In this document: positions 14,038 through 61,925 of the stretch, one piece after another
Layout of the letters: every line of letters starts with the position of its first letter
How positions within the stretch are numbered: position 1 is the first letter of the stretch
Program-made: the position numbers and the translations under genes
Source of the DNA: Thermoplasmata archaeon
Lineage (GTDB): Archaea; Thermoplasmatota; Thermoplasmata; UBA10834
Direction: 5' to 3'
Assembly: GCA_041304525.1 (NCBI GenBank)
Contig: JBFYNF010000045.1
Span: 7,479-71,478, forward strand
DNA length: 64,000 bases
Notes under the pieces: model-generated
The model's database searches: none
What the model was told of the DNA's origin: nothing
Seen by the model: the letters and a program-made list of their open reading frames with translations, nothing else

Positions 14038-14401
14038 CCTTGCTGATGCACTCTATCTCCTCGCAGTGGAGACGCCTGTGGCCCTTGGCCTCGTAGACCC
14101 TCTTGACGATACCCCTGAGCCTGTGGCAGGTCGGGACATCCGACTGAGTGGCCTCGATCGAGCCCTCCGCGACGGCGGTGGCCTCCTCGAAGACGATGTT
14201 GTCGACCCATCCCCTCGCCCTCAGCAGGTTGGCGCATATCTCGAAGTACTTCTCGGGCTCCTGCAGAGCGATCTTGGAGATCTCGTCCCCGAGTATCATG
14301 CCCTCCCGGAAGAAGAGGCCGTAGCACGCCTGAGACATCACGCCCTCGTAGAGCTTGCGTATCTCCTCGTACTCGGACTGGGAGAGCTTAACGAACTTCA
14401 T
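13991..14401 (-). CDS. V4R-domain protein
   Basis: Start taken at MKFVKLSQ (14401). The C-terminal pattern CHRLRGI...HCEEIECISKGDKHCVF is typical of V4R (4-vinyl reductase-like) small-molecule-binding domains. Confidence 0.6.
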   Translation of the reverse strand: MKFVKLSQSEYEEIRKLYEGVMSQACYGLFFREGMILGDEISKIALQEPEKYFEICANLLRARGWVDNIVFEEATAVAEGSIEATQSDVPTCHRLRGIVKRVYEAKGHRRLHCEEIECISKGDKHCVFRVEPLGGN

Positions 14402-14508
14402 CGTAACCGCTCGTGGATTCGTATGGATGATATTTAAGGTTTGGCGCATGGCCGTCGAGCCAGGCAACCCATGCACTTCCTCCGACGAAATCGTGTTGAA
14501 AAGTCTTT

Positions 14509-20919: not shown

Positions 20920-21534
20920 ATGAAGAAGATATCCAAACCCAGAAGGGTGCGGATGGGCGAAGAGGCCGAGATGGGGGTCGGGACATTGCTGATCTTCATC
21001 GCGATGATACTTGTCGCGGCGGTTGCCGCGGGGGTGCTCGTCCAGACCGCGTATGTACTACAGCAGCAGGCGGAGTCGACAGGAGATCAAGCACTGATGG
21101 AAGTGGCAACGGGATTCAGAATACTCGCGGCGTACGGGGTGACGAACCTATCGGTCCCTGAGGTGACCGACCTATACATCAAGATAACCTTGGCGGCAGG
21201 TAGCCCGGTCATCAACCTCGAGCACGTGATCATCGAGATCACGAACGGCGACAACGACGTTTCGCTGGCGTTCAATGTCACTGGCTCTGATGTGGATTAC
21301 TTCGGCGCGACACAGATCAGGGACACCTATCCCACGAACGACTGGACCACTGGCGAGCCGGGGATGACACAAGGCGACATCGCCCTCATCCACGTGAACC
21401 TTAGTGCGAACAGCCTCAGTCTGGCGTCGCAGCAGCAGGCGGACCTGTTGATCATCCCGAAGCACGGCATACCGACATACCTGTCGGTGGTTGCGCCGTC
21501 AGTGCTCTCGAACACCTACGAGAACCTCACCTAG
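20920..21534 (+). CDS. flaB: archaellin (FlaB/ArlB) 1
   Basis: Class III signal peptide and conserved hydrophobic N-terminus EMG|[26 protein letters not shown], followed by a beta-rich domain. Confidence 0.9.
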   Translation: MKKISKPRRVRMGEEAEMGVGTLLIFIAMILVAAVAAGVLVQTAYVLQQQAESTGDQALMEVATGFRILAAYGVTNLSVPEVTDLYIKITLAAGSPVINLEHVIIEITNGDNDVSLAFNVTGSDVDYFGATQIRDTYPTNDWTTGEPGMTQGDIALIHVNLSANSLSLASQQQADLLIIPKHGIPTYLSVVAPSVLSNTYENLT

Positions 21535-27622: not shown

Positions 27623-27631
27623 GAGGTGGAG

Positions 27632-28072
27632 ATGATGGGCGCAAGCGGAGCATCGACTCAGCTGATATTCTTCATATCCGCGTTGATCGTGGCAACGGCA
27701 GTAGTCGCCGTGGCCGCCAACGGGGTGTCCAAGATAACCAACGGGATAGACCAGAAGAGCGATAATGTGGAGAAGGATCTGCTGACGGACATTTCGATAA
27801 TAAACGACCCTGACGAGATCCCGAACGACCCTGTCAGGATATATGTCAAGAACGTGGGCAAGACCGTCCTGAACCAAAACTATATCACAGTAATGCTGGA
27901 TGGGTTTGCGGTCACGAACTACACGCTGACGCTGAGCGGGAGCACGTTGTCCTACTGGGACCCCGCGAGCATGCTGACGATATCAATAGACCAGAATTTG
28001 GCAGAGGGGGACCATTCGGTACAGGTGACCACCGAGAACGGCGTCTCTGACAAGCTCAGCTTCCGCATATGA
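27632..28072 (+). CDS. flaG: FlaG-like archaellum protein
   Basis: AGGAGG RBS. Archaellin-like N-terminus GASGASTQLIFFISALIVATAVVAV plus a beta-sandwich (VRIYVKNVGKTVLN). Position between flaF and flaH. Confidence 0.7.
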   Translation: MMGASGASTQLIFFISALIVATAVVAVAANGVSKITNGIDQKSDNVEKDLLTDISIINDPDEIPNDPVRIYVKNVGKTVLNQNYITVMLDGFAVTNYTLTLSGSTLSYWDPASMLTISIDQNLAEGDHSVQVTTENGVSDKLSFRI

Positions 28073-39281: not shown

Positions 39282-39485
39282 TGGACCCCGGCGACCTCAC
39301 TCGACATCGGCCTTGAGACTCTTCAACGATTGTGCCAATCTTTGATTCTTGTCCCACAAAGCACTACCCCATTCACCTTGGTGACTGATGACAGGAGACT
39401 AACAGGGCACGGAGCGGGACCGTCGAGGACGCCGCCAGACTGGACACGGGCGGCCTCGAATGGAAGACACCAAGGAAGTGAGGAT

Positions 39486-39827
39486 ATGAGGAAGGAGTTC
39501 GAGAGCGAGTTGGCGAGACAGGTATCAGGAAAGAAGAGACTCAGCAGGGCCTGGGTCATGTTGGCACTCTGTGCTGCCATTTTGGTCAGCGGGGCAGCGG
39601 CCGTGACGGCCGTAGCCGCAGGCAATGGAGATCAGCTCCAAACCCAGGACCAGCTCAAGGACGGTTCGTGCGACGACTGCGACGGCGACGGCATCTGCGA
39701 TTACGACCTAGACGGTGACGGTGTCTGTGACAATGATTGCACGTGCGACTGTGACGGCGACGGGATCTGCGACAACGACTCCGATGGAGACGGGGTCTGC
39801 GACTACCAAGAGGATTGCGTCGCCTGA
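39486..39827 (+). CDS. small membrane-anchored Cys/Asp-rich repeat protein (TSP type-3-like DGDGxCD repeats)
   Basis: ATG at 39486 after GGAAGTGAGGA. TM helix AWVMLALCAAILVSGAAAVTAVAA, then four DGDG[IV]CD units in CDDCDGDGICDYDLDGDGVCDNDCTCDCDGDGICDNDSDGDGVCDY. Confidence 0.5.
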   Translation: MRKEFESELARQVSGKKRLSRAWVMLALCAAILVSGAAAVTAVAAGNGDQLQTQDQLKDGSCDDCDGDGICDYDLDGDGVCDNDCTCDCDGDGICDNDSDGDGVCDYQEDCVA

Positions 39828-40009: not shown

Positions 40010-40081
40010 GGGCCGGTAGATCAGCGGCAGATCGCTCGCTTGGCATGCGAGAGGTCGCGAGTTCAAATCTCGCCCGGTCCA
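40010..40081 (+). tRNA. tRNA-Ala (anticodon GGC)
   Basis: Hand-folded. Acceptor GGGCCGG/CCGGTCC with the G3:U70 Ala identity pair, D stem GATC/GATC, anticodon arm CTCGC-TTGGCAT-GCGAG, T arm GCGAG-TTCAAAT-CTCGC. No encoded CCA. Confidence 0.9.
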
Positions 40082-40267: not shown

Positions 40268-41296
40268 TCAGTAGATACTTCCGCCTGGCTGAGTTGATGC
40301 AAGAACGCCATCGACCGCGCTCAGCGTGTACTCCACCCCTCCGGCCCCCGTCCACGACGCGAGGTCGAATTCTGATGTCATCGTCATCTTGAACACGGAT
40401 ATGCCCGTGAAGGTCAGTGGCGTCTTGGGCTGGCAGACCTCGGGCGCGTGAGTTGTCATGAGGAAGTAGGCAGCGCCTGTCCCGTCGTTGCACGCGTCGA
40501 ACAGGGTCACATCTCCATATTCGTCCACGGCCAACGCGACCTTCTCGTCGATGCCTATGCCCATCGCCACGGAGGCCCATCCATCCTGGACAATGCGCGC
40601 CATGAATGTCACGAGCCGGCCCATCCTATCCCTCGCCACGAAATGGCTGTCGGTGATCTTGTCGTCCATGTTCGGCATGGTGAGGAAGTCCTGCTCAAGG
40701 GTCAACCTCGGGTGATACGGGTTCGTCAGAGCCTCATCCGAGTCGATTGTGTTCCTCTCGGCGGAGAAGGAGAACTCGCCGAGCACCGCGAGGCCCGCAC
40801 TCGTGCCCCCGATCGGCGCGCCCTTGTCGCGCACATAGTGTATCGCATCCTCGACTGGGGTTCCCTTCCACATCCTCACATAATCCCACTGGTTGCCTCC
40901 CGCGATGAAGAGCGCATCGGCGTTGCGGATCTTGTCAAGCACGAAGACGTCGGAGCACGCCTCGTCCTTCAAGAAGATTATGGTCTCGCACGAATCGACG
41001 CCTCCAAGCTGTTTGAATATCCATGGGTTGTAAGCGTCGGTCCCAGAACAACGTATCACTACGAAGTCACCGCCGCCCGATCTCGCAATCATCCACTGCA
41101 TGGCCTCGGCGACGTCCGTGTCCCCGCCTGCTAGAAGCAGACCGGGGGTGGTCACCGTGTCGACGTCGGCGGGGTCCCCGTCTACATAGTACTCATAAGT
41201 CGCCTTCGCACCCGATGCCGACAACGATACCATCGTTGTCGACAGCACCATGATGAAAACCAAAGTCCCTGCTACAGCACGCTTCGCGAGATACAC
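40268..41296 (-). CDS. secreted peptidase S51 family (cyanophycinase/dipeptidase E-like)
   Basis: N-terminal signal, ALFIAGGNQWDY and nucleophile motif GGTSAGLAV. Confidence 0.7.
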   Translation of the reverse strand: MYLAKRAVAGTLVFIMVLSTTMVSLSASGAKATYEYYVDGDPADVDTVTTPGLLLAGGDTDVAEAMQWMIARSGGGDFVVIRCSGTDAYNPWIFKQLGGVDSCETIIFLKDEACSDVFVLDKIRNADALFIAGGNQWDYVRMWKGTPVEDAIHYVRDKGAPIGGTSAGLAVLGEFSFSAERNTIDSDEALTNPYHPRLTLEQDFLTMPNMDDKITDSHFVARDRMGRLVTFMARIVQDGWASVAMGIGIDEKVALAVDEYGDVTLFDACNDGTGAAYFLMTTHAPEVCQPKTPLTFTGISVFKMTMTSEFDLASWTGAGGVEYTLSAVDGVLASTQPGGSIY

Positions 41297-41495: not shown

Positions 41496-43544
41496 ATGAG
41501 CGAAGACTCCAAAGTGATCAATGAGAACCCCGAATCCGGGACGGAATCCGAAAGCATAAGCCCGCCTAAGAAGACGGGCGTCTCCCCCGCGATGAAGATG
41601 GTTGCATTGGCAGCCGTAGTCATCCTCCTGGTGGCAGTGCCCATGGGGTACTTCATCCTGAGCCAGGACGATGATGAGGAGGCAAACTTCTCGGTCGCGC
41701 TCACCGGCAAGGGCGGAGAGGAGGAGACCGCGGATCTTGCATCGCTCGAGGACATGGACTTCGTAGAGAACATCTCATCGTACCAGAACAGGTTCAACAA
41801 CTGGAATGGCCTGGGGACATATGGTGGCGTTGAGCTCAGGGACCTCGCGGACCTCGTCGGCGGGATGGCCGAAGGGGACGTGATGACAGTGACCGCCTCC
41901 GACGGATACGCCGTCAACCTGTCGTACGAGCAGGTCTACGCAGGCACGGAGTTCCTCGCAGTCCAGGGCCAGATCATCCTCGCATACGAGTTCAATGGAA
42001 GCCTCATGACGGAGGAGGACTGGCCCATGATAGCCGTCCTCGCCCCGGACGAGGCGTTCAGCAACGACGACTTCAACGCGACAGCCCCGGACGCGCCCGA
42101 GTTCGAGATGCTCACTTCGGCAGGGTCGCTCTGGGTCAAGATGGTCTCGAGTATCGAGATCGGCGAGCTGCAGGAACAGGATGTCGTCCTCACGGTCGAT
42201 GGCACAACGACGGTCGACCTCACGATGTACGAGCTGGAGAACCTGGAGTCGCTCACGTCGAACGGCAGCTTCATCAAGTCGACGGGGACTGTCGAAGGAC
42301 CGTTCGAGTTCACCGGCGTGGCTCTGAAGGACCTCGTCGACCTCGTGTACTCGGGCGACGACTACTCAGTCGAGGTGGTCGCCACTGACGGTTACGCCAT
42401 GACCTACAATTACTCGCAGGTCGAGAACGGCACTTTCGAGCAATACGACTCCGCAGGGACATCCCTGGGGTTCGACAACTTCACGATGGTCGTGGCTTAT
42501 GCGCAGGACGGATTACCCCTGGTAGACATGGTCCTGCGCATAGCCATCATTGACGACAGCGAACCGATCACGGACGGCCACTTCTGGGCCAAGTATGTCC
42601 GCACGGTGAATGTGTTGTCACCCGTGCGGGAGTACACACTAGAACTCAACGGCACGACGGTCTACGAGATGGACAGACAGACCTTCGAATCCGTCGCATC
42701 CTGCGACTACCATGCAGCCAGCTGGTCCTTCGAGAACGAAACTGGGACGCACACCTACACAGGCGTCGCCCTTTGGACGCTCGTATCAGCGGTCGACGGC
42801 GCGGACGGACCGGACACTGAGTATCTGTTCAACGACCTGCTCGCCTTCGAGGGATACATTGTGAGGGTCACTGCCGAGGATGGCTACAACAAGGCCTTCA
42901 CATCGATGCAGGTCGCCCGGAACGATACTATCATCGTTGCCAACAAGCTCGACGGCGAGCCGCTGCCGGACGATGAGTGGCCCCTTAAGATCGTCGGCGA
43001 CTGGCTGGCCAGCAACCTGAAGGTCAGCCAGGTTGTGAACATATCCCTCGAGGATCTCCAACCAGTTCCTGACTGGGAACTCACCATCGTCGGCACCGAG
43101 ACGGTGACGATCAGTGCTGAGACCTTCGCGTCGATATACTACTCCGGCCTCCACGGAACATGGTTCAACTACACGAACTACGGCGGATGGCATGCGACGT
43201 ACCACAACTACACCGACGACGAGCTGGTTGACCACACATACGCGGGCATTCCGCTCTGGGTGCTGATCGCAGCCGTCGACGGCGAGGACCTATACCACTA
43301 CGAGTTCAACGACACCCTCGCAGAAGCCGGGTACGATGTGAAGGTCATCGCATCGGACGACTACAACACGACGTTCTCGATAGATGACGTCGCGTACAAC
43401 AACAGCTTCGTCGTCGCGTTCATGCTGGACTGGATGGCCCTGATCGATGACGAGTACCCGCTCAAGCTCACGAGTGAGTACCTGTTCGGGTCACAGAAGA
43501 TCAAGTCCGTAGCAACGATCGAACTGATAGGACTGCCCGCGTGA
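41496..43544 (+). CDS. membrane-anchored secreted protein with four tandem SUOX/YedY-fold-like (Oxidored_molyb-like) domains
   Basis: N-terminal TM helix. Four ~150-aa repeats each carry [YF].GV.L.DL..LV ... V.A.DGY....[SY]..V ... [IL]..[AY]...G..L....WP[LM]K pattern. No conserved catalytic Cys is evident. Confidence 0.55.
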   Translation: MSEDSKVINENPESGTESESISPPKKTGVSPAMKMVALAAVVILLVAVPMGYFILSQDDDEEANFSVALTGKGGEEETADLASLEDMDFVENISSYQNRFNNWNGLGTYGGVELRDLADLVGGMAEGDVMTVTASDGYAVNLSYEQVYAGTEFLAVQGQIILAYEFNGSLMTEEDWPMIAVLAPDEAFSNDDFNATAPDAPEFEMLTSAGSLWVKMVSSIEIGELQEQDVVLTVDGTTTVDLTMYELENLESLTSNGSFIKSTGTVEGPFEFTGVALKDLVDLVYSGDDYSVEVVATDGYAMTYNYSQVENGTFEQYDSAGTSLGFDNFTMVVAYAQDGLPLVDMVLRIAIIDDSEPITDGHFWAKYVRTVNVLSPVREYTLELNGTTVYEMDRQTFESVASCDYHAASWSFENETGTHTYTGVALWTLVSAVDGADGPDTEYLFNDLLAFEGYIVRVTAEDGYNKAFTSMQVARNDTIIVANKLDGEPLPDDEWPLKIVGDWLASNLKVSQVVNISLEDLQPVPDWELTIVGTETVTISAETFASIYYSGLHGTWFNYTNYGGWHATYHNYTDDELVDHTYAGIPLWVLIAAVDGEDLYHYEFNDTLAEAGYDVKVIASDDYNTTFSIDDVAYNNSFVVAFMLDWMALIDDEYPLKLTSEYLFGSQKIKSVATIELIGLPA

Positions 43545-43553
43545 GACCAGACC

Positions 43554-45041
43554 ATGGAGATGCGTGAGAAGAGGACTTGGACAGTAATAGCTGTCGCGGC
43601 CAGCGCGGTGGTGATACTGGCTGGCCTAGGCCTTCCCATGCTCCGAGAGAGCGTGGAGGCCGTCGGCGGTGACATACTGTCCCAGACCTCCGACACCCTC
43701 ACGGTCAGGTGCCTGGGACCTGAGATCACGCTCACCCTGAACGGCTTCGAGGGTGAGGTGACCTTCACAAACTGCTTCCCAAACTCCACACTTTCTGGTA
43801 ATGATGACCCGGCCACGATAGATGGGTCGAACATATCCTGCACCGTTCGAGGTCCCGAGACGGAGTTGCGTCTCTCAGCTCAGGTCAAGGAGTCGTTCAG
43901 GTTCGCAGTCATGGGGGACAGTCAAGGGCAGAATGGCATACTCGCGGAAGCACTGGAACGCGTCGACGGATGCGAGTTCATTCTCCACCTCGGAGACATG
44001 ACCCCCTCGGGGCAGCCGTCCGAATTCGACGCCTTCGAATCGACCCTGGGAGCCATCACGATCCCCGTCCTCACCACACCTGGGAACCATGACGTCAAAC
44101 TCGACGGGGGCGATGAGTATACATCCAGGTTCGGGTCCTCGGCGTACAGTTTCGAGTACTCTGGCATAAGGTTCGCATCCGTCGATTCATCGGATCAGGT
44201 GATCGACGAGGGTGAGATTGATTGGCTGAGGGACACTTTCAAGGGGGCCGAAAGGAAGGTCCTGGTCACGCACATGCCAAGCTACGATCCGTTCGGAGAC
44301 AACCACACGCTAGATGCTGCATCTTGTGACAGGATACGGCAGTTCGTCCTCGAAGAGGATGTGGATGCCGTGTTCACTGGTCATATCCACGCATTCCACT
44401 ACATGCAGATGGAGAGCACCGACTTCATCATCACTGGCGGCGCGGGCGGAACCCTGGTAGACGGCGTCCATCACATCATCATCGTGAGCGTTGACGACAC
44501 CGGCTTCTCCTATGAGAAGATCGACCTCGATTACGTCCCACCTACGTCGCCACACGTGCAGGTCATCGGGAAGGATGGCTCGACCCTCAACATCACATAC
44601 GAGGAGCTGATGCTCATGGACCTCGTGGAGAACGACTCGTCATACGAGAACCTGTACGGCAACATCGCCGGACAGGGACACTACAGGGGAGTCCTCGTCC
44701 GGGACCTGCTTGAGCTCGTCGGTGGCATGACCGAGGGAGACCTGCTCACAATCACCGCAATAGATGGATACATCCAAGAGTTCGGGTTCCTGAACGCATG
44801 CCCCGATGCGACATGGCTGAATCTGCAGGGTGAGATGATAGTCTCGGTCGAATTAGACGGGGTGCTGGCGCCCACATGGACTGAGGGCCCACGGATAGCC
44901 ATGCTACCAGAGGATGGCCTGTACAGCAACTCCGACTGCGAACTCACCTCGTACGAAGGGCAGGGATACTCGACGTACGAATCCGCGGGCGCGAGATGGG
45001 TGAAGAACACGTTCACTATCACGGTGGAGGCTGCAGCATGA
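43554..45041 (+). CDS. membrane-anchored secreted metallophosphoesterase with C-terminal SUOX-fold-like domain
   Basis: N-terminal TM. Calcineurin-like motifs VMGDSQG, HLGDMT, GNHD, VTHMP, GHIHAFH. The C-terminal YRGVLVRDLLELVGG...ITAIDGY... matches the repeat of 41496..43544. Confidence 0.7.
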   Translation: MEMREKRTWTVIAVAASAVVILAGLGLPMLRESVEAVGGDILSQTSDTLTVRCLGPEITLTLNGFEGEVTFTNCFPNSTLSGNDDPATIDGSNISCTVRGPETELRLSAQVKESFRFAVMGDSQGQNGILAEALERVDGCEFILHLGDMTPSGQPSEFDAFESTLGAITIPVLTTPGNHDVKLDGGDEYTSRFGSSAYSFEYSGIRFASVDSSDQVIDEGEIDWLRDTFKGAERKVLVTHMPSYDPFGDNHTLDAASCDRIRQFVLEEDVDAVFTGHIHAFHYMQMESTDFIITGGAGGTLVDGVHHIIIVSVDDTGFSYEKIDLDYVPPTSPHVQVIGKDGSTLNITYEELMLMDLVENDSSYENLYGNIAGQGHYRGVLVRDLLELVGGMTEGDLLTITAIDGYIQEFGFLNACPDATWLNLQGEMIVSVELDGVLAPTWTEGPRIAMLPEDGLYSNSDCELTSYEGQGYSTYESAGARWVKNTFTITVEAAA

Positions 45042-46114
45042 GGAAGTACTACTTCTCCACGAAGGACCTCGTGACCATCGCCTTGCTCTCGGCGCTCGGC
45101 GGAGTGCTGTCGACATACATCGGGTACCTCGGCAACATGGTCAACCACATCATCGGCGTTCCGTTCGGGGCGGGCCAGTTCTTGGCCGGACTGCACGTGA
45201 TATGGATCATGCTTGCCCTTGGCATCACGCGTAAGAAGGGGGCGGCCACCGTGACGGGATTCCTGAAGGGAGTGATCGAACTCTTCCTCGGGAGTACGCA
45301 TGGAATCGTCATAGTCATCGTTTCGCTAATCCAGGGATTGATACCAGACATCGTTCTGTTCAGTGACAAGGCCAAGGCGAACAGGAGCCCGATGTTCTAC
45401 GCACTGGCGGGGGGTTTCTCCGCTGCATCCAATGTGATTGTGTTCCAACTGTTCTTCTTCTCTGGCATACCTCTGTACCTCGTCGCGATGCTCTGCATGC
45501 TGGCAGCCGCTTCAGGCATCATCTTCGGAGGATGGCTTGTCCTGGAGATGCTCGAGTCGCTCGAGCTGTCAGGGATGATACTCGGCAAGAGGAGGGTCGT
45601 GGTGGACGACCCGAATGTCGACGAGAGCGTGTGGGTCAAGGGGAAGGCCGAGAAGCGCAAGGCGCTCACGGCGGTGATCGCCGCCACGATCTTCCTGTCA
45701 GCGTTCACGGTCGGCGCCGTATACTACTTCACATTCGTGTTCAAGCTCACAGAGGAAGGAACCATCGAAGTCTCCGGCGCGGTCACGGACCCATACACAT
45801 TCCGATACGAGGACTTCAGCGACACGCAGGTCACAGTCAACGCGGAGCTGATTGGCACCGTGACACACGTCGACCCGAGAAACTATACAGGTATCACTCT
45901 GAATGAAATCGTGAGTGAGGCGGGACCTGATGAAGGAGCCACCGAGGTCGTGGTCACTGGCCGGGACGGTTACTACGCCGTATTCGAGCTGGACGACGTC
46001 GCGGCGGACGACGGACTCATCATAACTCAAGAGGATGAGCTGTTCACGATAGTCGCTGCCAACTACGAAGGGGCATACTGGGTGGAGGATGTCGTGTCGG
46101 TCGAAGTGAGGTAG
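45038..46114 (+). CDS. ECF-transporter S-component-like membrane protein fused to an extracellular SUOX-fold-like domain
   Basis: ATGA overlap with the upstream gene. N-terminal ~190 aa are polytopic (STKDLVTIALLSALGGVLS...), followed by an extra TM helix. The C-terminal ~120 aa read YTGITLNEIVSEAG...VTGRDGYYAVFELDDV. ECF A and T genes follow directly. Confidence 0.55.
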   Translation: MRKYYFSTKDLVTIALLSALGGVLSTYIGYLGNMVNHIIGVPFGAGQFLAGLHVIWIMLALGITRKKGAATVTGFLKGVIELFLGSTHGIVIVIVSLIQGLIPDIVLFSDKAKANRSPMFYALAGGFSAASNVIVFQLFFFSGIPLYLVAMLCMLAAASGIIFGGWLVLEMLESLELSGMILGKRRVVVDDPNVDESVWVKGKAEKRKALTAVIAATIFLSAFTVGAVYYFTFVFKLTEEGTIEVSGAVTDPYTFRYEDFSDTQVTVNAELIGTVTHVDPRNYTGITLNEIVSEAGPDEGATEVVVTGRDGYYAVFELDDVAADDGLIITQEDELFTIVAANYEGAYWVEDVVSVEVR

Positions 46115-47578
46115 ATGCTCGACGTCATGGACCTTTACGTAAGGTACGAGAATAGGTCGAAGCCCGCAGTGGACGGACTCTCACTGCACGTCGACCTAGG
46201 CGAGTTCGTCCTTCTCATGGGCGACTCCGCATCTGGGAAGTCGACAGCCATGCAGGCCGTGTGCGGATTCATCCCCGACATCATACCCGCGGAGAAGAGA
46301 GGTGAGGTGCGGATAGGCGGACAGACGTATGAGGACGCCACTGCAATCTCCAGCGTCGCGTGCATGGTGCAGCAGGACCCTGAGACGCAGTTCTGCACGG
46401 AGACCGTCGAGGAGGAAGTCGCCTTCGGTCCTGAGAACCTGAACGTGCCCAGGGCGGATATCAGGAAGGCCGTGGATGAATCTCTTGCGAGCGTGGGCGC
46501 GTCCCACCTCGTCAGCAGGAAGCTCTCTACGCTCTCTGGGGGTGAGAAGCAGAAGGTCGCGATAGCGTCGATGCTCTCGGTGAGACCTCGGCTCCTCATC
46601 CTCGATGAACCCACATCGAACCTCGACCCGCGATCTGTCTCCGATGTCGTCGGAGTCATAGATGCCCTGAGACGGAGGAAAGAGATGACCATCGTGGTCG
46701 TCGAGCACCGGCCAGGAGGGTTCAAGGACCTCGCCTCGAGAGTCATGGTCATGGACAAGGGGATGCTTGTGCTGGACTGTGGACGGCATGATCCATCTTT
46801 CGCAGAGCGCATCGGGAAGGCCGAGGCGAAGCCTTCGCCACCGATACCCTCCAAGAGCGAACTGGCAGTCGTCTCGGTCAAAGGATTGTCGTACGGAGTC
46901 GATGGCACGAAGATTCTCGATGACGTGACATTCGACCTCAAAGATTGCGCTGTCGTGGCGCTAATGGGGGAGAATGGAGCCGGAAAGACGACACTTCTCA
47001 GACACCTCATGGGGCTGCTGACCCCACAGTCCGGAAGTGTCGACGTGTTAGGACATCCTCAGGACAAGGATGTGAGGACTGAACCTTGGGTCCTCGGGAG
47101 GGAAGTCGGGTTCGTCTTCCAGAATCCGAACCACCAGATCTTCGAGAGGACGGTCGAGAAGGAGATACTCTTCGCCGCGGAGAACTATGACGCACCGAAA
47201 GGCGAGGCACTGAAGGCGGTCGAGGAATTCGAGGCCTCCGAGGAGGTCAGAAAGTTCGTACACCCCCATTGCCTCAGCTTCGGTCAGAAGAGGAGGGTGA
47301 ACATCCGGTCTGCGTCGTCCCACGGCCCCAGGCTGATACTCATGGACGAACCGTTCTCGGGACAAGATGCCGAGAACGCAGAGGCCATCCGAGGGATGAT
47401 AACGAACCTCCAACGAGCGGGCAAGACGGCCGTCGTGGTCACGCACGACATACAGTTCGCGAAAACCTCGTGCACCGATGTCGTATTCATGAGGGCCGGG
47501 AAAATCGTCAGAACTGGTCCTGTGAGCAGCGTGCAGGAAAGCGAATGGGAGGAATTGTTCACCGGGGTGACCAGATGA
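46115..47578 (+). CDS. ecfA: fused duplicated ECF-type ABC ATPase (EcfA-EcfA')
   Basis: Two NBDs: Walker A GDSASGKST and GENGAGKTT, signatures LSGGEKQKV and a degenerate LSFGQKRRV, Walker B LILDEP and LILMDEP. Confidence 0.85.
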   Translation: MLDVMDLYVRYENRSKPAVDGLSLHVDLGEFVLLMGDSASGKSTAMQAVCGFIPDIIPAEKRGEVRIGGQTYEDATAISSVACMVQQDPETQFCTETVEEEVAFGPENLNVPRADIRKAVDESLASVGASHLVSRKLSTLSGGEKQKVAIASMLSVRPRLLILDEPTSNLDPRSVSDVVGVIDALRRRKEMTIVVVEHRPGGFKDLASRVMVMDKGMLVLDCGRHDPSFAERIGKAEAKPSPPIPSKSELAVVSVKGLSYGVDGTKILDDVTFDLKDCAVVALMGENGAGKTTLLRHLMGLLTPQSGSVDVLGHPQDKDVRTEPWVLGREVGFVFQNPNHQIFERTVEKEILFAAENYDAPKGEALKAVEEFEASEEVRKFVHPHCLSFGQKRRVNIRSASSHGPRLILMDEPFSGQDAENAEAIRGMITNLQRAGKTAVVVTHDIQFAKTSCTDVVFMRAGKIVRTGPVSSVQESEWEELFTGVTR

Positions 47579-48333
47579 CGGCAAGACTCCCTGAGGAGGG
47601 CACCCCCAGACTGAACCCCATCACCAAGGCGCTCCTGCTGGTGATGTTCTCCATACTCGTGCTCCTCGTGGTCGACCCGGTCCACATGTCCGCGATCGTG
47701 GTATGCGTGCTCGTAGCCAAAGAGCATTTCCACGCGCGAGGACTCGTCACAAGAGGCATCATTGGATTCGCGATGGCCATCTTCGTGGCGCAGATTCTAT
47801 TCAATCACTCAGGGGATGAGCTCGCGAGCTGGTCCGCATTCTCGGTCACGACAGGTGGCATCTACGATGGTGTGTCTATAGCCGGGAAGTTCCTGAGCTT
47901 GATCATGATGTCATGGGTGTTCGTCGCGACGACCTCACCCTCTGAGCTATCATCCGCCCTCACGACCGCGGGATTCCCCTACAGGTACGCGTTCCTGCCA
48001 GCGCTTTCCATGCGGTTCGTACCGGTGTTCCAGTTCGAGCTAGCCACTGTCAGGGAGGCGCAGGTCACGAGAGGGATGAAACTCGACAGGAGCATCAAGG
48101 GGATTGTGCGGTCCGCGAGGTACACGACCATGCCAATGCTCATGACGGCGATGTCCAGGGTCAACTCCATCACGGCATCCATGACGGGCAGAGGTTTCGG
48201 GATGCACAAGACCAGGACCCAGCTCCAGCCCATAAGGATGACTGCATGGGACCTCGCGTTCCTAGCCAGTTCGGCAGTATTCGTGGCAGTGACCTTCCTG
48301 GTCACAAGATGCCCGGCACTCCAAATCGCCTGA
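47575..48333 (+). CDS. ecfT: ECF transporter T component (CbiQ/EcfT family)
   Basis: ATGA overlap with ecfA. Polytopic, with the ..LSMRFVP....E...V.EAQ..RG motif region typical of EcfT. Confidence 0.8.
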   Translation: MTARLPEEGTPRLNPITKALLLVMFSILVLLVVDPVHMSAIVVCVLVAKEHFHARGLVTRGIIGFAMAIFVAQILFNHSGDELASWSAFSVTTGGIYDGVSIAGKFLSLIMMSWVFVATTSPSELSSALTTAGFPYRYAFLPALSMRFVPVFQFELATVREAQVTRGMKLDRSIKGIVRSARYTTMPMLMTAMSRVNSITASMTGRGFGMHKTRTQLQPIRMTAWDLAFLASSAVFVAVTFLVTRCPALQIA

Positions 48334-49080
48334 TCATCCGACCCTCAGCTCACCGTTCTCGATCCTCGTCGCGTATCGTAGGAGTTCGCTCCCGTTCGAC
48401 CTGAAGGGAGCGTAATGTCTGATGGCGGCCGACACGGTAGCAGCAAGCCCGTCCGTGCGGTTCCGTCCGGAATGGGCCCAGTAACAACTCGTGAAATGCC
48501 TTGCGAAAGAAACCTTCGCCGCGGTGAAGACAGGGTCAGTCATGAGTACACTGGCGCACAACTGTCCCAGGTCGTTGAGTGTGTCTGCGGACGAGGCTTC
48601 CTCGAAGTCGAGGCCGGTGATGCCGGAGGGGGTGATGATGAAGTTCTTGAGGACGGCGTCCCCGCGAGCAAGCTTGAAATCGAATGCGATGTGGAAAGAT
48701 GACATCCATTTGGCCAGGTTGTCCGCGAGTTCTCTTTGCGCCTCGGACAGATCGGCCCCCGAAGAGTGGGAGAACAACTCATCGAAGACCACGGCCGCGG
48801 ATTCGCCCTCAATCGGTTCCATCACGATCGCATCTTCGACCATGGTGACGGGTAGCGGCACGGGGACTCCCTTCTCACGGCACCAGGATAGCACACTGAA
48901 CTCAGCTTGGGCACGCTCCTTCCATTCGTCCCTGAAGACCTTCACGACATATTCCCTTCCGCCGACAGATGTTCTGAACACGCGGTTCTTCTTGCTCTGC
49001 ATGTATGGGCCGATGCGGCCGTTCCCCAAGTCGTGCAATGACATCTTGATACTCATCGTCACTCGCCCACGGATTCCCAA
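48334..49080 (-). CDS. protein-kinase-like fold protein (Bud32/RIO/APH-like, degenerate)
   Basis: N-lobe-like EYVVKVFRD...E..VL......GVPVP...V....IVMEPIEG and C-lobe-like GDAVLKNFII....ITGLDFEEA. The catalytic HxD reads RGD. Confidence 0.45.
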   Translation of the reverse strand: MGIRGRVTMSIKMSLHDLGNGRIGPYMQSKKNRVFRTSVGGREYVVKVFRDEWKERAQAEFSVLSWCREKGVPVPLPVTMVEDAIVMEPIEGESAAVVFDELFSHSSGADLSEAQRELADNLAKWMSSFHIAFDFKLARGDAVLKNFIITPSGITGLDFEEASSADTLNDLGQLCASVLMTDPVFTAAKVSFARHFTSCYWAHSGRNRTDGLAATVSAAIRHYAPFRSNGSELLRYATRIENGELRVG

Positions 49081-49268: not shown

Positions 49269-50555
49269 ATGAGAACGACCTGTTCGAAGAGGATTATAGC
49301 GGCATTGCTGATTGTGACTGCGTTTTCGATGGTGAATGCGTTCGCCGTCGCGAAGCCGGACAGCTTGTTTGATGCGCCGGAAGATACATTGGTCGATGCG
49401 GAATGGACCATAATAGTGTATCTGGCTGCGGACAACAACCTGCAGCTCGCGGCTGTTGGCGACCTTCAGGAGATGGAGGCCGTCGGACCCATGGATGGTA
49501 TCAACGTCGTGGTCCTGATGGACACCATTGACATAACCGAAGGGACGCACTGGTACGCCCTCGGTGATGGCGAGACGCATTTCGATGCGGACGGCGCCCC
49601 GAGCATCTGTGACTGCGACGAGGTCGCAGGCGGCTCTCCTGGCGAACTGAACATGGGTGACCCGGAGACCCTGACCTACTGCCTCAAGACCGCTGTTGCA
49701 TTCGCCCCGGCTGACAACTACATGCTCATCCTTTGGGACCACGGAGGCGGCTGGTGGGGCGTGTGCTATGATGAGGGTTCACTGACGCCCACTGGGAGCA
49801 CGGACAGACTGATAATGGATGAGGTCCAGCAGGGAATCGAAGCATCTGGAGTCGACCTTGACGTCATCGGGTACGACGCGTGCTTCATGGGCATGATTGA
49901 GATAGCCTATGAGAACAGGAACCTGGCCGAGTACATGGTCGCGTCAATCACAACTGTGCCTGGAGATGGCTGGGACTACACGGCCTGGCTGGGTGGAATC
50001 GACGGCACTGACAGGAGCCCGTACGCCGTGAGCGAACTGGCTGCCTCGACATATGTCGATTTCTACACCATATGCATGGGCGTTGGCCTGGGCGGATTCC
50101 CTTACACTAGCATGGGCGTGTTTGACCTCACAACGGTCGAGAACCTCGTAATCAACGGCATAGACCCGGTGGCCGCGGCGCTCGTACCACTGACCGAGGA
50201 GTACTACCTCCGCGGGCCGATAGAGTCCTCGGAATCGCAGACGCCGCAGATACAGTTCCACGGCGAGGCGTTCCCGTTCACTGACATCGGACTGTTCATG
50301 ACACTGCTTGGCGAGAAGATACCAGAACTGAGCGTAGAAACCGCTAAGGCCGTCACACTGCTCGACGATACGATCCTGTGGTTCGACTATGTCGCGCCTG
50401 ACGCAGACATGTGTCTCCGGTCATTCGGGATGTCCATATACTACACCATAAGCGGGGACAAGCTGTACGACAACTACCTCACCAGCAACCTCGACATGGT
50501 GGACGACACGAACTGGGACGAGTTCCTCTGGGCCTTGGCGATGACGGCGGAATAG
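49269..50555 (+). CDS. secreted clostripain-family cysteine peptidase (C11)
   Basis: Signal peptide. IIVYLAADNNL, VVVLMD, catalytic His in LILWDHGGGWWG and catalytic Cys in IGYDACFMG. Confidence 0.8.
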   Translation: MRTTCSKRIIAALLIVTAFSMVNAFAVAKPDSLFDAPEDTLVDAEWTIIVYLAADNNLQLAAVGDLQEMEAVGPMDGINVVVLMDTIDITEGTHWYALGDGETHFDADGAPSICDCDEVAGGSPGELNMGDPETLTYCLKTAVAFAPADNYMLILWDHGGGWWGVCYDEGSLTPTGSTDRLIMDEVQQGIEASGVDLDVIGYDACFMGMIEIAYENRNLAEYMVASITTVPGDGWDYTAWLGGIDGTDRSPYAVSELAASTYVDFYTICMGVGLGGFPYTSMGVFDLTTVENLVINGIDPVAAALVPLTEEYYLRGPIESSESQTPQIQFHGEAFPFTDIGLFMTLLGEKIPELSVETAKAVTLLDDTILWFDYVAPDADMCLRSFGMSIYYTISGDKLYDNYLTSNLDMVDDTNWDEFLWALAMTAE

Positions 50556-51267: not shown

Positions 51268-52776
51268 TCAAGGATACTCTAGTCGTCTCGTATCGAATCC
51301 CTTCGCATACTCCCGGAGCAGAACAGCCATGCCCTTGCTCACCTCAGGCTCGAGCGGCTCGGGTGTATGAGTTTTCAGGAGTTCGTACATACGCTCCTTC
51401 GCACGTTCGTCGGCGCTCTTAGACCCTTTGGCGACCCACTGCTGCCTGGTCGACCTGTCTGATAGCCTGGCCGTATGGTGCTCATTCCTGAACTGCGTCA
51501 GCGTCTCCTTCCTCTTCAGGTAGTTGCCCTGAGGACCAGTCTTGTGGATGACGTCTACCGACAGAGTGCTCTCGTCGACCACGATGCCAGCAGCGATTCT
51601 GTTCACGTTCGAGGCGATTTCGTCATCAATAATCAGCTGAACGGGGGAGAAGGCGTTGAACGCCTCCGTAGAACCCATGAAGAGTTCGGCGAAGTCCGCC
51701 CCGGCCAGAGTGGCCATCAACGCCGCTTGCGTCTTCTCGTACGAAGTCTGAGCGTCAACCATCTTCGAGTCGCTCTGGACACCCATGTCGCTCGGCAGGC
51801 CATAGAACTTAGCGAGTTCGACCGTGCCGACCCCCAAGAGGGAGAACTCGGGCGCACCTGTGGCGGCGATGCCTGACCTCATGTCCAGAGGACATGAGAC
51901 GGACCCGTAGACGACCCTTGGGGATTTCGTGACGCACTTCGCTATCGCTATCGAGCTCAGTATCTCGGCGTTCTGCTGGACGAGCAGACCAGCCAGCGAG
52001 GCGGGCGCTGTCCCCCCTGCGAGCGCCATGACCATGATGAAGACCGGCAGGTCCATCTCCGCATACTTCAGGAGCGTCTCGAGCATGTGCTTGTCGTGCC
52101 CCAGAGGGCTAATCGGGTCGATGTAGCCCGGGAAGAGCGGAGTCTTCCTGAGGAGTTCCCTGTCCCCCAGGAGTAGCTCCGAGACGCGGAGCATGAGCTC
52201 GAACTCGATGCTGTCTCCGCTGCTCCCATAACTCGGCTTGGACGTGTGCATCAGACTCGTGACCCACATGACCATGCTCTGGGCGTCGGTATGGACGTCG
52301 CCCGGATAGACGGGCACATAGCCGACGGTGCATGTGTCCAGGGCGTCCAGGAGCCGGCTTATGAGGATTCCGTCCTTGAGGGTCGACGGCCGATACTCAC
52401 CCGTTTCGGGATCGATGTAGAACAGACACTGCGCCCCAGGGCCGAACTTGGTCCTGCCGTCGACGGCATCCACTGACCGGCTCTTATTTCTTGCATGCCA
52501 TCGGAAGTTGTGGGCGCAACTCTTGACCGCCTCCGCGACAGAAGACTCGGACATGCGCACGATCCTCGACTTCCGATCAACTGAGTAACCGTTGCTCTGA
52601 AGCATGTCGAGCACTTCTGGGGAGTCCACGAACACGCCTGTCTTCTCGAGCACTTCGAGGGTCGCGCCGTGAATCGCCTCCAGATTGGCTCTCCCAAGCA
52701 CCGTGAGCATGTTCTTCCCAGAAACCATGTGTACCTCTGCTCCGCCGATAGTGATGGCGTTGGTTCGGTTGACCAT
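51268..52776 (-). CDS. MttB-superfamily methyltransferase homolog (non-pyrrolysine type)
   Basis: 502-aa uninterrupted ORF with MttB-like sequence (LEAIHGATLEVLEKTGV..., MALAGGTAPASLAG). No in-frame TAG. Confidence 0.8.
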   Translation of the reverse strand: MVNRTNAITIGGAEVHMVSGKNMLTVLGRANLEAIHGATLEVLEKTGVFVDSPEVLDMLQSNGYSVDRKSRIVRMSESSVAEAVKSCAHNFRWHARNKSRSVDAVDGRTKFGPGAQCLFYIDPETGEYRPSTLKDGILISRLLDALDTCTVGYVPVYPGDVHTDAQSMVMWVTSLMHTSKPSYGSSGDSIEFELMLRVSELLLGDRELLRKTPLFPGYIDPISPLGHDKHMLETLLKYAEMDLPVFIMVMALAGGTAPASLAGLLVQQNAEILSSIAIAKCVTKSPRVVYGSVSCPLDMRSGIAATGAPEFSLLGVGTVELAKFYGLPSDMGVQSDSKMVDAQTSYEKTQAALMATLAGADFAELFMGSTEAFNAFSPVQLIIDDEIASNVNRIAAGIVVDESTLSVDVIHKTGPQGNYLKRKETLTQFRNEHHTARLSDRSTRQQWVAKGSKSADERAKERMYELLKTHTPEPLEPEVSKGMAVLLREYAKGFDTRRLEYP

Positions 52777-59168: not shown

Positions 59169-61925
59169 TCAGTCCGGTGTTTCGTCGAGCGATTCCAAGT
59201 TCCTCTTGGCCGCGGCCAGAGCCGCATCATCGCCCAGCAACTCTGCCTGTCCGACGGCTTCGACATACCGCGATCTCGCGGCTGTGTAATCCCCACGTTT
59301 CTCCTCGATGTTGCCAAGCATGAGATGGACCGCCACAAGCCCGGCCTTGTCTCCTGCTGCCCTCAACAGTCTCTCGGCGTCCCTGAGCTTGTCCGAAGCC
59401 CCATCCAAGTCGCCTGAACGCTCCTTCACCAGGGCGAACTCGACCTTGGCCTTGGAGCGGAGCACCGAGTCATCCAGTGACTCTGCCATGTTCGTCAAAC
59501 GTTCGATCTCGGCCTCGGCACCCTTCAGGTTCCCAGAAGACCTGAGCAGGCCGATGAGCGTGATGGACAAGGCGACATCACCGCGATCGTATCGCGCAGT
59601 CCTCTTGAGCAGGCCTGTCCTCTTCCTAAGCTCGGGCCTCGACAAGGCGTCGATGGCAATCTCGATTGCCTCACCCGTCCCGCCCTGAGCTCCGATGGAC
59701 TCCGAACACACGGCCTGGAGCCTCTTGAACTCCTCGAGCTCGCCAGCACGCCTGAATGCCTCGGACGATTCACGCAGTAGGGCAGTCATCTCATTCAGAC
59801 GCGCCTGTATCCTGAACAGTTCTGCGAGATTCTCCAACCCCCTGGCCTCACCTGCATGGTTCTTCACCGCATGTGCGAGCCTGACAGATTCCCTCAGCCG
59901 AGTCTCGGCGTCCTTGAGCCTGCCCTCGTCCCAATCGAGCAACGCCAGGTTGTTCATACATGCGGACTGGGCGCCCCTATCCTCACTCTTGCTAGCGAGT
60001 GACAGGGCCTCGGTATACGCCGCCCTCGCCTTTGCGAAGTCCCCGCGTTTCCTGTGCGCACCCCCTATGTTCAGCCACTCGCGTGTCTGCCCGCTCACAT
60101 CTCCGGTCTTCTCGTAGATTCTCAGAGCCTTCTCGTGAGCTTCGAACGATTCCGCAAACTGCTCGACTCGCGTCTTCAACTTCCCAAGCGACTCAAGCAC
60201 CTGTGCTCGTTCCTCACTGCCCTCGTCCTCCTGGAGCAGGTCCAGACAGGATTCGTAATGCCTCGCTGCGGAGGCGTCATCTCCGAGCATCTCGCTCAGT
60301 TGACCCATGTGGAAGAGCGTTCCGACTGACTCGGCAACAGAGGCCGGCTCAGCATTGATCAGTTCGAGATACTCGAGCGTCTCGTGAGGGAACTCGAGCG
60401 ACAAATCCTCGAAGGCATCTGTTGCCACTCGCCTGGCTGAGGCGATATCTCCAGCCTGGATATAGTGATGGAGGCTCTCGATCATCCAGTCGGCTCCTTC
60501 CCTGCCCTCGCAGTACCCTGCGGCCCTCCTGTGAAGCATCGCCCGTGAATCAGCGCCCAGTCGAGAGATGAAGAATTCGCGAAGAACGTCGTGGGTCCAC
60601 ACACCGTTCTCCTGTTCGACCACGAGGGCCTTATCCTTCAGGCCGATGAAGGCTGTGGCCTCTCTGTCAACGATTGCCTCCAGCGGGACTGGATGGCGAT
60701 AGACGGACAGGAGTTCGAGCATGCCACGCTCCTCTGGAGTCAGAGACATGCTGATCTCCCGGTCCATAAACGACAAGATGTCGCCCCTGGACTCGCCCAC
60801 GCCACTCCGGGACATGAGGCTCAGTAGCAATGGGTGACCACGGCTGGCATCCGCAGTCACAGCGGGGTCTTTCGCCTTCGCGCTCTCGGCGAACTTCCTT
60901 GCGGAAGCGTTGTCCAGCCCCGACAACTCCAACGTGACGTTTCCGTCCCCCGTCTTCGAGAAGAACTGAGGCAGCTCACGGGAAATCAGCACCGCCTTAC
61001 AGGTCCCGGAGGCTCTGACCGCTTCGAGAACCACCGCCAACGTCAGGCCGAGTCTCTCCGAAATCTTCTGGACATCATCCAGGAACAGTACCGCGTCAAA
61101 TCCGGCAAGGTCACTCAACAGTGGAGCGTACAGGCCGCCCACCACGGCCCCTCTTTCCCGTTCCTCAGCGGTAGATCGGCGGTTCGCAGACTCCAGAAAC
61201 TTCGACAGCACTGACACGAAGTGCTCCTCTGTGTCCCACGAATGGAAGGAGTACCAGAACAGGTGTTTCCGCCCTGAGAGCTCGTCAAACGCCTTGGATG
61301 CGAGTGAGGTCTTGCCGATGCCAGGGATGCCCCATATCAGCATGACTGACGAATCGCCGCTGACGTGGTTCATGATAGCCTTCCGCTCGTTCTCGCGCCC
61401 GTACAGAATCGGCATCTTCGGTCTGCCAAGCTCAGCCTCGACGTATCTCTCCTTCCTGACCGACGGCACGAGCTTCTTGGAGAGCTCGTCCGATCTCACC
61501 ACATCGATGCCACGAGCTATGTCCACGAGGTCGAGAAAACTGGGCGTGTAGCCAGTGAGTGCGCTGAAATGCTTGAACGCCTCGGCAAGGGTCATCTCCT
61601 CCGCCCGTCCCCTCTCCTCGTAGACCACCCGGGACTTCAGGAGGTTGTCCTTAACATCATTGGCAACCTTGTGCCCCTTCTCCGTCAGAAAGTATGCCCT
61701 CCGCCTTTTGGGGGCGCCGCGTATGTGCGCCAGCCTATCCATGACAACACCATCCGACTCCAGCACGGACAAGGCCCTTGATACGTTATGGACCTGAGTT
61801 CCCAGGCGGTTGGCAATGCCCTCCTGACTTGCGCCCAGGGGTACCTCCGGTTCCGCCCTGTGGCCATCCATCTCCAGCAGATGGAGCATTAGTCGTTCGT
61901 TCTGGGATACAACTGGGCGGGGCAT
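59169..61925 (-). CDS. wHTH - STAND/AAA-type NTPase - TPR repeat protein
   Basis: N-terminal MarR-like wHTH (IANRLGTQVHNVSRALSVLESDGVV...RRAYFLTEKG). P-loop IWGIPGIGKTSLA and Walker B VLFLDDVQ. The C-terminal ~450 aa are TPR-like repeats. Confidence 0.75.
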   Translation of the reverse strand: MPRPVVSQNERLMLHLLEMDGHRAEPEVPLGASQEGIANRLGTQVHNVSRALSVLESDGVVMDRLAHIRGAPKRRRAYFLTEKGHKVANDVKDNLLKSRVVYEERGRAEEMTLAEAFKHFSALTGYTPSFLDLVDIARGIDVVRSDELSKKLVPSVRKERYVEAELGRPKMPILYGRENERKAIMNHVSGDSSVMLIWGIPGIGKTSLASKAFDELSGRKHLFWYSFHSWDTEEHFVSVLSKFLESANRRSTAEERERGAVVGGLYAPLLSDLAGFDAVLFLDDVQKISERLGLTLAVVLEAVRASGTCKAVLISRELPQFFSKTGDGNVTLELSGLDNASARKFAESAKAKDPAVTADASRGHPLLLSLMSRSGVGESRGDILSFMDREISMSLTPEERGMLELLSVYRHPVPLEAIVDREATAFIGLKDKALVVEQENGVWTHDVLREFFISRLGADSRAMLHRRAAGYCEGREGADWMIESLHHYIQAGDIASARRVATDAFEDLSLEFPHETLEYLELINAEPASVAESVGTLFHMGQLSEMLGDDASAARHYESCLDLLQEDEGSEERAQVLESLGKLKTRVEQFAESFEAHEKALRIYEKTGDVSGQTREWLNIGGAHRKRGDFAKARAAYTEALSLASKSEDRGAQSACMNNLALLDWDEGRLKDAETRLRESVRLAHAVKNHAGEARGLENLAELFRIQARLNEMTALLRESSEAFRRAGELEEFKRLQAVCSESIGAQGGTGEAIEIAIDALSRPELRKRTGLLKRTARYDRGDVALSITLIGLLRSSGNLKGAEAEIERLTNMAESLDDSVLRSKAKVEFALVKERSGDLDGASDKLRDAERLLRAAGDKAGLVAVHLMLGNIEEKRGDYTAARSRYVEAVGQAELLGDDAALAAAKRNLESLDETPD

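Follow-up and report, generated by a model that had tools for sequence, protein, structure and literature searches.

This study concerns a gene cluster at positions 41496-48333 of a 64,000-nucleotide (nt) stretch from a Thermoplasmata archaeon (contig JBFYNF010000045.1), here called the window, together with a sixth gene at 48334-49080 that converges on it. The genes encode a predicted energy-coupling factor (ECF) transporter, two anchored surface proteins and a cytoplasmic kinase. The features are as follows.

41496..43544, + strand: gene 1, anchored surface protein, 682 amino acids (aa) (PF00174 Oxidored_molyb, E 1.2e-15)
43554..45041, + strand: gene 2, anchored extracellular calcineurin-type metallophosphoesterase, 495 aa (PF00149 Metallophos, E 8.8e-18)
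45038..46114, + strand: gene 3, YkoE-family ECF substrate-binding (S) component joined to a PruR/sulfite oxidase (SUOX)-like domain (PF09819 ABC_cobalt)
46115..47578, + strand: gene 4, fused EcfA-EcfA' ATPase, 487 aa (PF00005 twice, E 3.6e-53; TIGR04520 ECF_ATPase_1)
47575..48333, + strand: gene 5, EcfT/CbiQ transmembrane coupling (T) component, 252 aa (PF02361, E 5.1e-25; TIGR02454, E 9e-13)
48334..49080, - strand: gene 6, cytoplasmic atypical kinase (APH/Bud32/RIO-like), ~240 aa (PF01636, E 6.9e-13; PF01163 RIO1, E 7e-6)

The five co-directional open reading frames (ORFs) are tightly packed. Genes 1 and 2 are separated by 9 nt, the stop codon of gene 2 and the start codon of gene 3 share an ATGA overlap at 45038-45041, the TAG of gene 3 abuts the ATG of gene 4 at 46115, and an ATGA overlap at 47575-47578 joins gene 4 to gene 5. 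The first-pass annotation, which was made from the sequence alone, had described this arrangement, and we find the ORFs and junctions all as it gave them. What it missed is the sixth conserved member, the convergent kinase gene, whose stop codon abuts that of gene 5 and whose true start may be an ATG near 49056.

The same annotation had named genes 3 to 5 as an S-component-like membrane protein ending in a recurrent domain, a fused EcfA-A' ATPase and EcfT, and the family matches bear out each of these assignments. The S part of gene 3 (aa 1 to ~180) scores 73.5 bits against PF09819 (cut-off 25.2; E 2.1e-20), and it matches the thiamine-binding S component YkoE (5EDL) both in a profile search (E 4.8e-10) and in a Foldseek search with an AlphaFold2 model of pLDDT 79.7 (E 5e-6, TMt 0.77), with an identity of ~21%. 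The recurrent domain occupies aa 244-356. Gene 4 carries two ABC_tran domains and scores 332 bits against TIGR04520 (cut-off 315), with TIGR04521 at 314.7 bits falling just under its cut-off of 330. Gene 5, a CbiQ family member, contains the Arg-containing stretches 'ALSMRF' and 'AQVTRG'. The cluster thus holds an S component of a recognised family with a CbiQ/EcfT-type T component and two EcfA-type ATPase domains adjacent to it. These families mark the cluster as an ABC importer of the ECF type with its own dedicated module (group I), whose pump is predicted to consist of the S component, the T component and the fused AA' ATPase. The archaeal cluster encodes no binding protein of the periplasmic binding protein (PBP) fold; a putative ligand-binding ectodomain is found on the S component and on two partner proteins.

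Extracellular domain, surface enzyme and kinase

The two partner proteins are built as first annotated. Gene 1 has one N-terminal transmembrane helix (aa 36-54) followed by four tandem domains, and gene 2 has a transmembrane helix (aa 11-29), a calcineurin-type catalytic core at about aa 115-330 and a C-terminal copy of the domain. Aligned by BLASTP over 157 aa, the first domain of gene 1 shares 39% identity with the C-terminal end of gene 2 (E 7e-26). A hidden Markov model (HMM) of the domain, iterated on related loci, locates six copies in the window proteins, with domain E values from 5e-56 to 6e-18 (7e-53 to 6e-18 within gene 1). All lie on the + strand.

About 41697-42161: gene 1 copy, aa 68-222
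About 42186-42611: gene 1 copy, aa 231-372
About 42636-43031: gene 1 copy, aa 381-512
About 43077-43535: gene 1 copy, aa 528-661
44559-45026: gene 2 copy, aa 336-491
45767-46105: gene 3 copy, aa 244-356 (PF00174 itself is weak here, E 3.7e-4, residues 242-328)

Word-indexed searches with the domain alone or with an alignment of 33 diverse copies (A2) returned almost no matches, and an exhaustive HMM search was used instead. At E <= 1e-3 the family comprises 2,534 cluster representatives, and a single protein can hold as many as ten copies. Against the PDB, the A2 profile matches best the Vibrio vulnificus PruR homologue 7KOM (E 2.4e-7), followed by SorA (3e-6) and then by further PruR structures at 4e-5 to 4e-4 (7KOS 4e-5, 7RKB 5e-5). 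Structural comparison gives a similar picture. With the gene 3 model, Foldseek returns SUOX enzymes (SorA, YedY, nitrate reductase) and PruR pterin-binding proteins, and SUOX-fold molybdoenzymes including sulfite oxidase are among the ectodomain matches at E 1e-4 to 1e-5. With the model of gene 1 domain 1, which is of moderate confidence (pLDDT 68), the top five matches are all PruR structures (TMt 0.45-0.63), including 7RKB with neopterin. Profiles and models together place the PruR pterin-binding proteins nearest to the ectodomain among solved structures.

PruR is a periplasmic, non-catalytic, SUOX-like protein that holds a pterin between Tyr104 and Trp160 with a hydrogen bond from Asn102, and in which a Trp replaces the Mo-ligating Cys, giving a PW motif at the Cys position (PMC11194511). 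In 385 aligned copies of the cluster domain, a D-G-Y motif conserved at 93, 90 and 88% aligns with the N-D-Y of PruR, with the pterin-stacking Tyr kept and the Asn replaced by Asp. Only the copies of the domain-1 type have 'NW' where PruR has PW, and an equivalent of Trp160 is not assignable. No Cys is conserved: the highest frequency in any column of the 385 copies is 21%, and the A2 alignment is alike in this respect. The initial proposals that the repeat resembles the molybdopterin-binding SUOX fold and that it lacks a conserved catalytic Cys are therefore both upheld, the former by PF00174 (gene 1) and by the Foldseek matches to SorA, YedY, sulfite oxidase and nitrate reductase. The products of genes 1 and 2 start with single transmembrane anchors only, and no twin-arginine (RR) motif is present in their N-termini. 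We rejected a catalytic SUOX molybdoenzyme as the identity of these proteins on the grounds of the missing Cys ligand and the missing twin-arginine translocation (Tat) signal.

In gene 3, six S-component helices are followed by a Lys/Arg-rich cytoplasmic linker, a seventh transmembrane helix (aa 210-228) and then the domain, an arrangement that places the domain outside the cell. The fusion of S component and domain is present in at least 596 relatives, and the best 120 listed all keep both parts at lengths of 341-414 aa; it is likewise kept in all loci examined. The membrane pocket can be compared with that of YkoE, where Trp49 stacks on the thiamine pyrimidine, Glu77 and Gln95 hydrogen-bond to it, and Tyr46 and Asp131 contact the thiazole (PMC5037267). 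The equivalents of Glu77 and Gln95 are the invariant E81 and Q99 of the cluster S family. Trp49, however, is replaced by an invariant His53 and Tyr46 by Ala50, and Asp131 falls in an insertion and has no aligned partner. With the Glu and Gln kept and the remaining contacts changed or unmatched, the pocket looks built for a related but different heterocycle.

Both enzymes of the cluster look active from their conserved residues. The calcineurin-like motifs (GD, GD, GNHD, H and GHxH) are present in gene 2, and its D122, D148, N178-H179-D180, H240, H277 and H279 are invariant in 99 homologues; the nearest solved sequences are the GpdQ-type phosphohydrolase 2DXL (E 5e-5) and purple acid phosphatases. 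In the kinase, K47, E60, D141, N146, D158 and E160 are invariant. It scores 49.3 bits against PF01636 APH (cut-off 23.2), and among family members APH is matched in 17 of 18 and RIO1 in 12 of 18. A single-sequence search of the PDB with the kinase gave no match, and the profile search gave Bud32/TP53RK (5e-9), amicoumacin kinase (1e-4) and Rio2 (2e-4). An identity as Bud32 of the KEOPS complex was considered and rejected: its TIGR03724 score of 29.7 bits falls far short of the cut-off of 125, no Kae1 gene was seen nearby, and the kinase occurs in Bacillota operons. Bacteria are not known to have a KEOPS complex.

Distribution and riboswitches of the orthologues

A scan of one genome per species found 234 loci, and a metagenome scan with a bacterial alignment found 269 more; 80 of each were taken for mapping by phmmer and HMM searches. 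The module recurs in 159 loci from Thermoplasmatota, Asgard archaea and syntrophic Bacillota. The genome-scan loci are mostly from Thermoplasmatota, with Asgard loci from Heimdall-, Hermod- and Promethearchaeota and Bacillota loci from Syntrophomonadaceae, Pelotomaculum and Syntrophaceticus. The five genes of the first-pass annotation are kept together across three phyla. Component counts, restricted to loci with long flanks, are as follows.

Multi-domain protein: 28/28 archaeal-type loci, 36/36 bacterial-type loci
Phosphoesterase: 23/28 archaeal-type loci, 30/36 bacterial-type loci
AA' ATPase and T component: 28/28 archaeal-type loci, 36/36 bacterial-type loci
APH/RIO-like kinase: 28/28 archaeal-type loci, 15/36 bacterial-type loci

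The bacterial kinase gene often lies directly after the T gene on the same strand. Since the kinase accompanies the cluster while the neighbours outside the six genes vary from locus to locus, we count it as part of the unit.

The bacterial orthologues carry a regulatory element that points to a cofactor. The Rfam aptamer RF01055, which belongs to the molybdenum cofactor (Moco) and tungsten cofactor (Tuco) riboswitches, is present in nine Bacillota genome loci (surveyed loci are given as L numbers). In L056, L059, L065, L071 and L078 the first cluster gene follows the aptamer directly, and in L063 and L069 the aptamer is upstream of operons that start with tupA-like or MOT1 genes and run into the cluster. 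A covariance model (R1) built from these Bacillota matches gave 31 matches in 29 of the 80 metagenome loci, each on the same strand as the S gene, and 27 of these loci have a match that abuts the first cluster gene or sits just upstream of it. Overall, 31 of the 49 bacterial-type loci having at least 4 kb of upstream sequence carry the aptamer upstream on the same strand, usually immediately before the first cluster gene, and several of the aptamer-negative loci are from Asgard archaea or have giant upstream genes that extend past the flank. In the Rfam-scanned bacterial loci, no thiamine pyrophosphate (TPP) or other riboswitch class precedes the cluster.

The P3 stem is absent in all eight alignments displayed. 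RNAs of this P3-less kind have been correlated with tungsten-cofactor metabolism (Regulski et al., PMC2408646), as restated for E. limosum (PMC11725836). A terminator-like hairpin and U tract follow just after the aptamer in 7/7 leaders read, a layout that is usual for an OFF switch.

Several further features of these loci are recorded here. L126 has two Moco-family aptamers in tandem before one cluster (4411-4534 and 4585-4704); tandem riboswitches usually sharpen a response. Downstream of the transporter genes, a second riboswitch can precede giant multi-domain proteins of at least ~1,400 aa, or cut off by the end of the sequence: 12273-12393 before 12820-17007 in L069, 11480-11600 before 11710-17041 in L063 (where a dockerin-containing protein comes first after the aptamer), 10900-11021 before 11161-14799 in L098, and 12049-12164 before 12331-16380 in L089. 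L081 encodes a 5'-nucleotidase-type enzyme at 14244-16109 (+), with Metallophos, 5_nucleotid_C and weak NadN_nucleosid_C matches, near a divergent Moco-family aptamer at 13575-13694 (-). In L069, a ModA-like binding-protein gene appears to be split into two overlapping ORFs (2519-2932 and 2901-3341), through either a frameshift or an assembly error.

Candidate ligand and rival explanations

A fold of the pterin-binding type on all extracellular parts, together with a tungsten-cofactor riboswitch before the bacterial operons, leads us to a pyranopterin cofactor as the ligand. We judge the chances about even that the system salvages an extracellular pyranopterin phosphate derived from molybdopterin or tungstopterin, which would be captured, dephosphorylated, imported by the ECF module and phosphorylated again; the most likely candidates are molybdopterin, one of its dinucleotide forms or cyclic pyranopterin monophosphate (cPMP). 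The surface phosphoesterase, catalytically intact and equipped with the PruR-like domain, suggests that the ligand contains a phosphate ester as well as a pterin, and the conserved cytoplasmic kinase fits re-phosphorylation after import. The window also contains an AOR-family gene at 11603-13567 (+) (PF01314, E 4e-123; PF02730, E 1e-74), a tungsten-pyranopterin enzyme, which indicates that the organism has a demand for the cofactor.

In the proposed pathway, the four-domain anchored protein would concentrate the ligand at the cell surface, where the anchored dinuclear metallophosphoesterase, targeted to its substrate by its own PruR-like domain, would strip a phosphate or nucleotide group. The ectodomain fused to the S component would pass the trimmed ligand to the membrane pocket, ATP-driven ECF import would follow, and the cytoplasmic kinase would re-phosphorylate the imported ligand and so trap it. 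The salvaged cofactor could then feed tungsten enzymes such as the AOR of the window. In the first-pass annotation a pterin ligand had been called pure speculation. It now has two independent supports, the PruR relatives and the Moco/Tuco riboswitches; the substrate itself, like the direction of transport, the order of the steps and the substrate of the kinase, is what we infer from them.

Several observations weigh against salvage of a pyranopterin cofactor. Free Moco is chemically labile (PMC9026282), and a pocket of the PruR type does not reach the length of a full Moco cleft, with PruR itself binding small non-Moco pterins (PMC11194511). The kinase is as near to Bud32 and RIO as to small-molecule kinases and is found in fewer than half of the bacterial-type loci counted above. 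None of the five annotated archaeal contexts has Moco genes adjoining the cluster. The Rfam scan of the whole window gave two tRNAs and no riboswitch, and model R1 matched neither the window nor any archaeal or Asgard locus, so that the riboswitch evidence comes from the bacterial orthologues only. The Tuco regulon of E. limosum includes iron transporters and a tungstoenzyme (PMC11725836) and is thus wider than cofactor supply; the riboswitch accordingly ties the system to the tungsten-cofactor economy and not to a specific substrate. Finally, the cluster can follow genes for metal transport. In L063 it comes after genes for a tupA-like substrate-binding protein, a permease, an ATPase and MOT1 under the same riboswitch, in L069 after two PBP_like_2 genes with ModABC-like genes upstream, and in L124 TupA is upstream.

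Because the cluster often lies beside tungsten or molybdenum transporter genes, uptake of the metal itself is a serious rival, although we consider it unlikely. The imported species would be tungstate, molybdate or a thio- or organic complex, and the ectodomains, perhaps with the phosphoesterase site, would bind the oxyanion. As analogues of phosphate, tungstate and molybdate occupy the dinuclear sites of phosphatases. P3-less riboswitches, moreover, are known before tungstate transporters (PMC2408646, PMC11725836). However, the S component belongs to a vitamin-type family and keeps the ring-binding Glu and Gln, and the nearest structures of the domain bind pterins. A catalytically complete phosphoesterase and a conserved kinase would be unnecessary for an oxyanion, and dedicated tungsten or molybdenum transporters are already present in the same operons.

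The shortness of the PruR pocket relative to the Moco cleft means that the ligand could be another pterin. On this account, the imported compound would be some other phosphorylated pterin or heterocyclic cofactor, such as one of the methanopterin or neopterin type, and the tungsten-cofactor riboswitch would be merely co-regulatory. Such pterins are abundant in anoxic, methanogen-rich habitats, and the carriers of the cluster are syntrophs and sediment archaea. The small non-Moco pterins bound by PruR, the truncation of the pocket relative to Moco enzymes and the presence in the Tuco regulon of genes not directly involved in cofactor synthesis agree with it as well. Against this stand the consistency of the riboswitch association (31 of 49 loci) and the finding that Rfam scans gave no other riboswitch class before the cluster. 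We regard this alternative as rather improbable, somewhat more so than metal uptake.

Two other explanations are very improbable. An ordinary YkoEDC transporter for thiamine or hydroxymethylpyrimidine would account for the PF09819 membership, the conserved equivalents of Glu77 and Gln95 and the JGI name 'ABC-type thiamin/hydroxymethylpyrimidine transport system permease subunit', but not for the invariant His in place of the stacking Trp49, the Ala in place of Tyr46, the unmatched Asp131, the low identity to 5EDL (~21%) or the occurrence of RF01055, and of no TPP riboswitch, in the Rfam-scanned bacterial loci. Equally improbable is an outward-working ECF module that delivers a pterin cofactor to Sec-exported SUOX-like surface enzymes, comparable to flavin trafficking in Listeria: ECF subunits that serve extracytosolic flavin trafficking have been reported (PMC9973259), and the domain proteins lack Tat signals, which makes their loading in the cytoplasm impossible, but the domains have no metal-ligating Cys, a terminator placed behind the aptamer suggests that the operon is repressed while the cofactor is abundant, and the phosphoesterase and kinase would be left without a role.

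If pyranopterin salvage is indeed the function, molybdopterin would count as a 'vitamin' that Thermoplasmatota, Asgard archaea and syntrophic Bacillota exchange in their anoxic communities. The view of Moco as non-importable would change, and the cofactor supply of tungsten enzymes in uncultured archaea would be explained. At present Moco is considered the one major cofactor that cells have to make de novo because they cannot import it, with C. elegans the sole known exception (PMC9026282). Our literature searches found no published description of the system, an earlier mention in the 2009 ECF comparative-genomics work being possible; nor did they bring up a prokaryotic transporter of Moco or a connection between ECF or YkoE proteins and Moco, tungsten or SUOX-like domains. 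We suggest tentatively, and with a little less assurance than for salvage itself, that this is the first prokaryotic route for uptake or salvage of a Mo/W pyranopterin cofactor or its precursor, and the first ECF transporter in which extracellular capture domains are paired with a phosphoesterase on the surface and a kinase in the cytoplasm. Orthologous bacterial operons under riboswitch control are to be had from cultivable relatives, Syntrophomonas and Pelotomaculum among them.

Surroundings and known systems

Peptidase genes lie on both sides of the cluster, one of the S51 (cyanophycinase-like) family at 40268-41296 (-) and one of the C11 (clostripain-like) family at 49269-50555 (+), each product having a hydrophobic N-terminus. 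Farther off are an M20 peptidase at 941-2455 (+) and a 1302-aa protein with SBP_bac_5 and PKD domains at 2693-6598 (+), the latter followed by two more ORFs (6736-8656). Together, the three peptidases and the SBP_bac_5 protein suggest a peptide-degrading lifestyle. An MttB-superfamily methyltransferase at 51268-52776 (-) (PF06253, E 4.8e-84) is an uninterrupted ORF of 502 aa, apparently a member of this superfamily without an in-frame amber (pyrrolysine) codon.

Several ORFs (20920-21531, 22366-24084 and 27626-28069, +) have N-termini that by eye are archaellin- or pilin-like, for example 'GIGTLIIFIAIVLVAA'. They belong to a co-directional run that extends to ~33924 and may be an archaellum or pilus locus. 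A small anchored protein at 39330-39827 (+) with Asp/Cys-rich repeats of the 'DGDGICD' type and a weak TSP3_bac match may be a calcium-binding surface protein; just downstream is an ordinary tRNA at 40010-40081. The other tRNA match, at 9567-9671 (+), spans 105 nt against a 71-position model and is therefore probably an intron-containing archaeal tRNA. About 10 kb from the cluster, at 59172-61925 (-), lies a gene for a 918-aa STAND-type protein with helix-turn-helix (HTH), NB-ARC/AAA_16 and TPR regions. Similar STAND-type proteins are found near the cluster in the Thermoplasmatota loci L002 and L084.

With regard to known systems, the SUOX molybdoenzymes (SorA, YedY/MsrP, sulfite oxidase and nitrate reductase) have a homologous Moco-binding fold, whereas the cluster domain has no Cys ligand, Tat signal, dimerisation or haem partner and has a short hairpin region. 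PruR is closer: it too is a small extracytoplasmic SUOX-like fold without the Mo-ligating Cys (7KOU and 7KP2 are also among its structures). However, PruR is a single-domain protein that acts as a signalling partner of the DcpA cyclase/phosphodiesterase in Proteobacteria, whereas here the domain occurs in tandem and fused to a transporter subunit and a phosphoesterase, and its carriers are archaea and Bacillota. No DcpA operon of the PruR type was seen around the cluster, whose neighbours are ECF, phosphoesterase and kinase genes.

The conserved kinase completes the NadN/PnuC/NadR-like logic that the first-pass annotation had invoked. In the nicotinamide riboside salvage of Haemophilus, an extracellular enzyme (NadN) trims a phosphorylated cofactor, a transporter (PnuC) imports the product and a cytoplasmic kinase (NadR) re-phosphorylates it. 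The same succession of trimming by a metallophosphoesterase-family enzyme, import and re-phosphorylation is what we propose for the cluster, with the differences that PnuC is not an ECF transporter, that no binding domain is common to the Haemophilus components and that the cofactor is another one. As for the Moco/Tuco regulon (RF01055; moa, mod and tup operons), the bacterial orthologues have P3-less aptamers and terminators like those of tup and other tungsten-related operons, and PMC2408646, PMC11725836 and PMC3766115 describe no ECF transporter, PruR-like domain protein or phosphoesterase as a member of that regulon.

The nearest transporter is YkoEDC of Bacillus subtilis, with which the cluster shares a PF09819 S component, a fused double ATPase, a CbiQ-type T component, the group I organisation and the pyrimidine-binding Glu and Gln. 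It differs in having an extra transmembrane helix, the extracellular domain, surface domain proteins, a phosphoesterase and a kinase, and in that its bacterial orthologues are under a Moco/Tuco and not a TPP riboswitch. The system is of a known kind, an ECF transporter, with a new architecture and probably a new class of substrate. By definition, ECF transporters need no extracellular binding protein, and an ectodomain that the S component has in common with an enzyme and a capture protein would be a departure from the canonical ECF mechanism.

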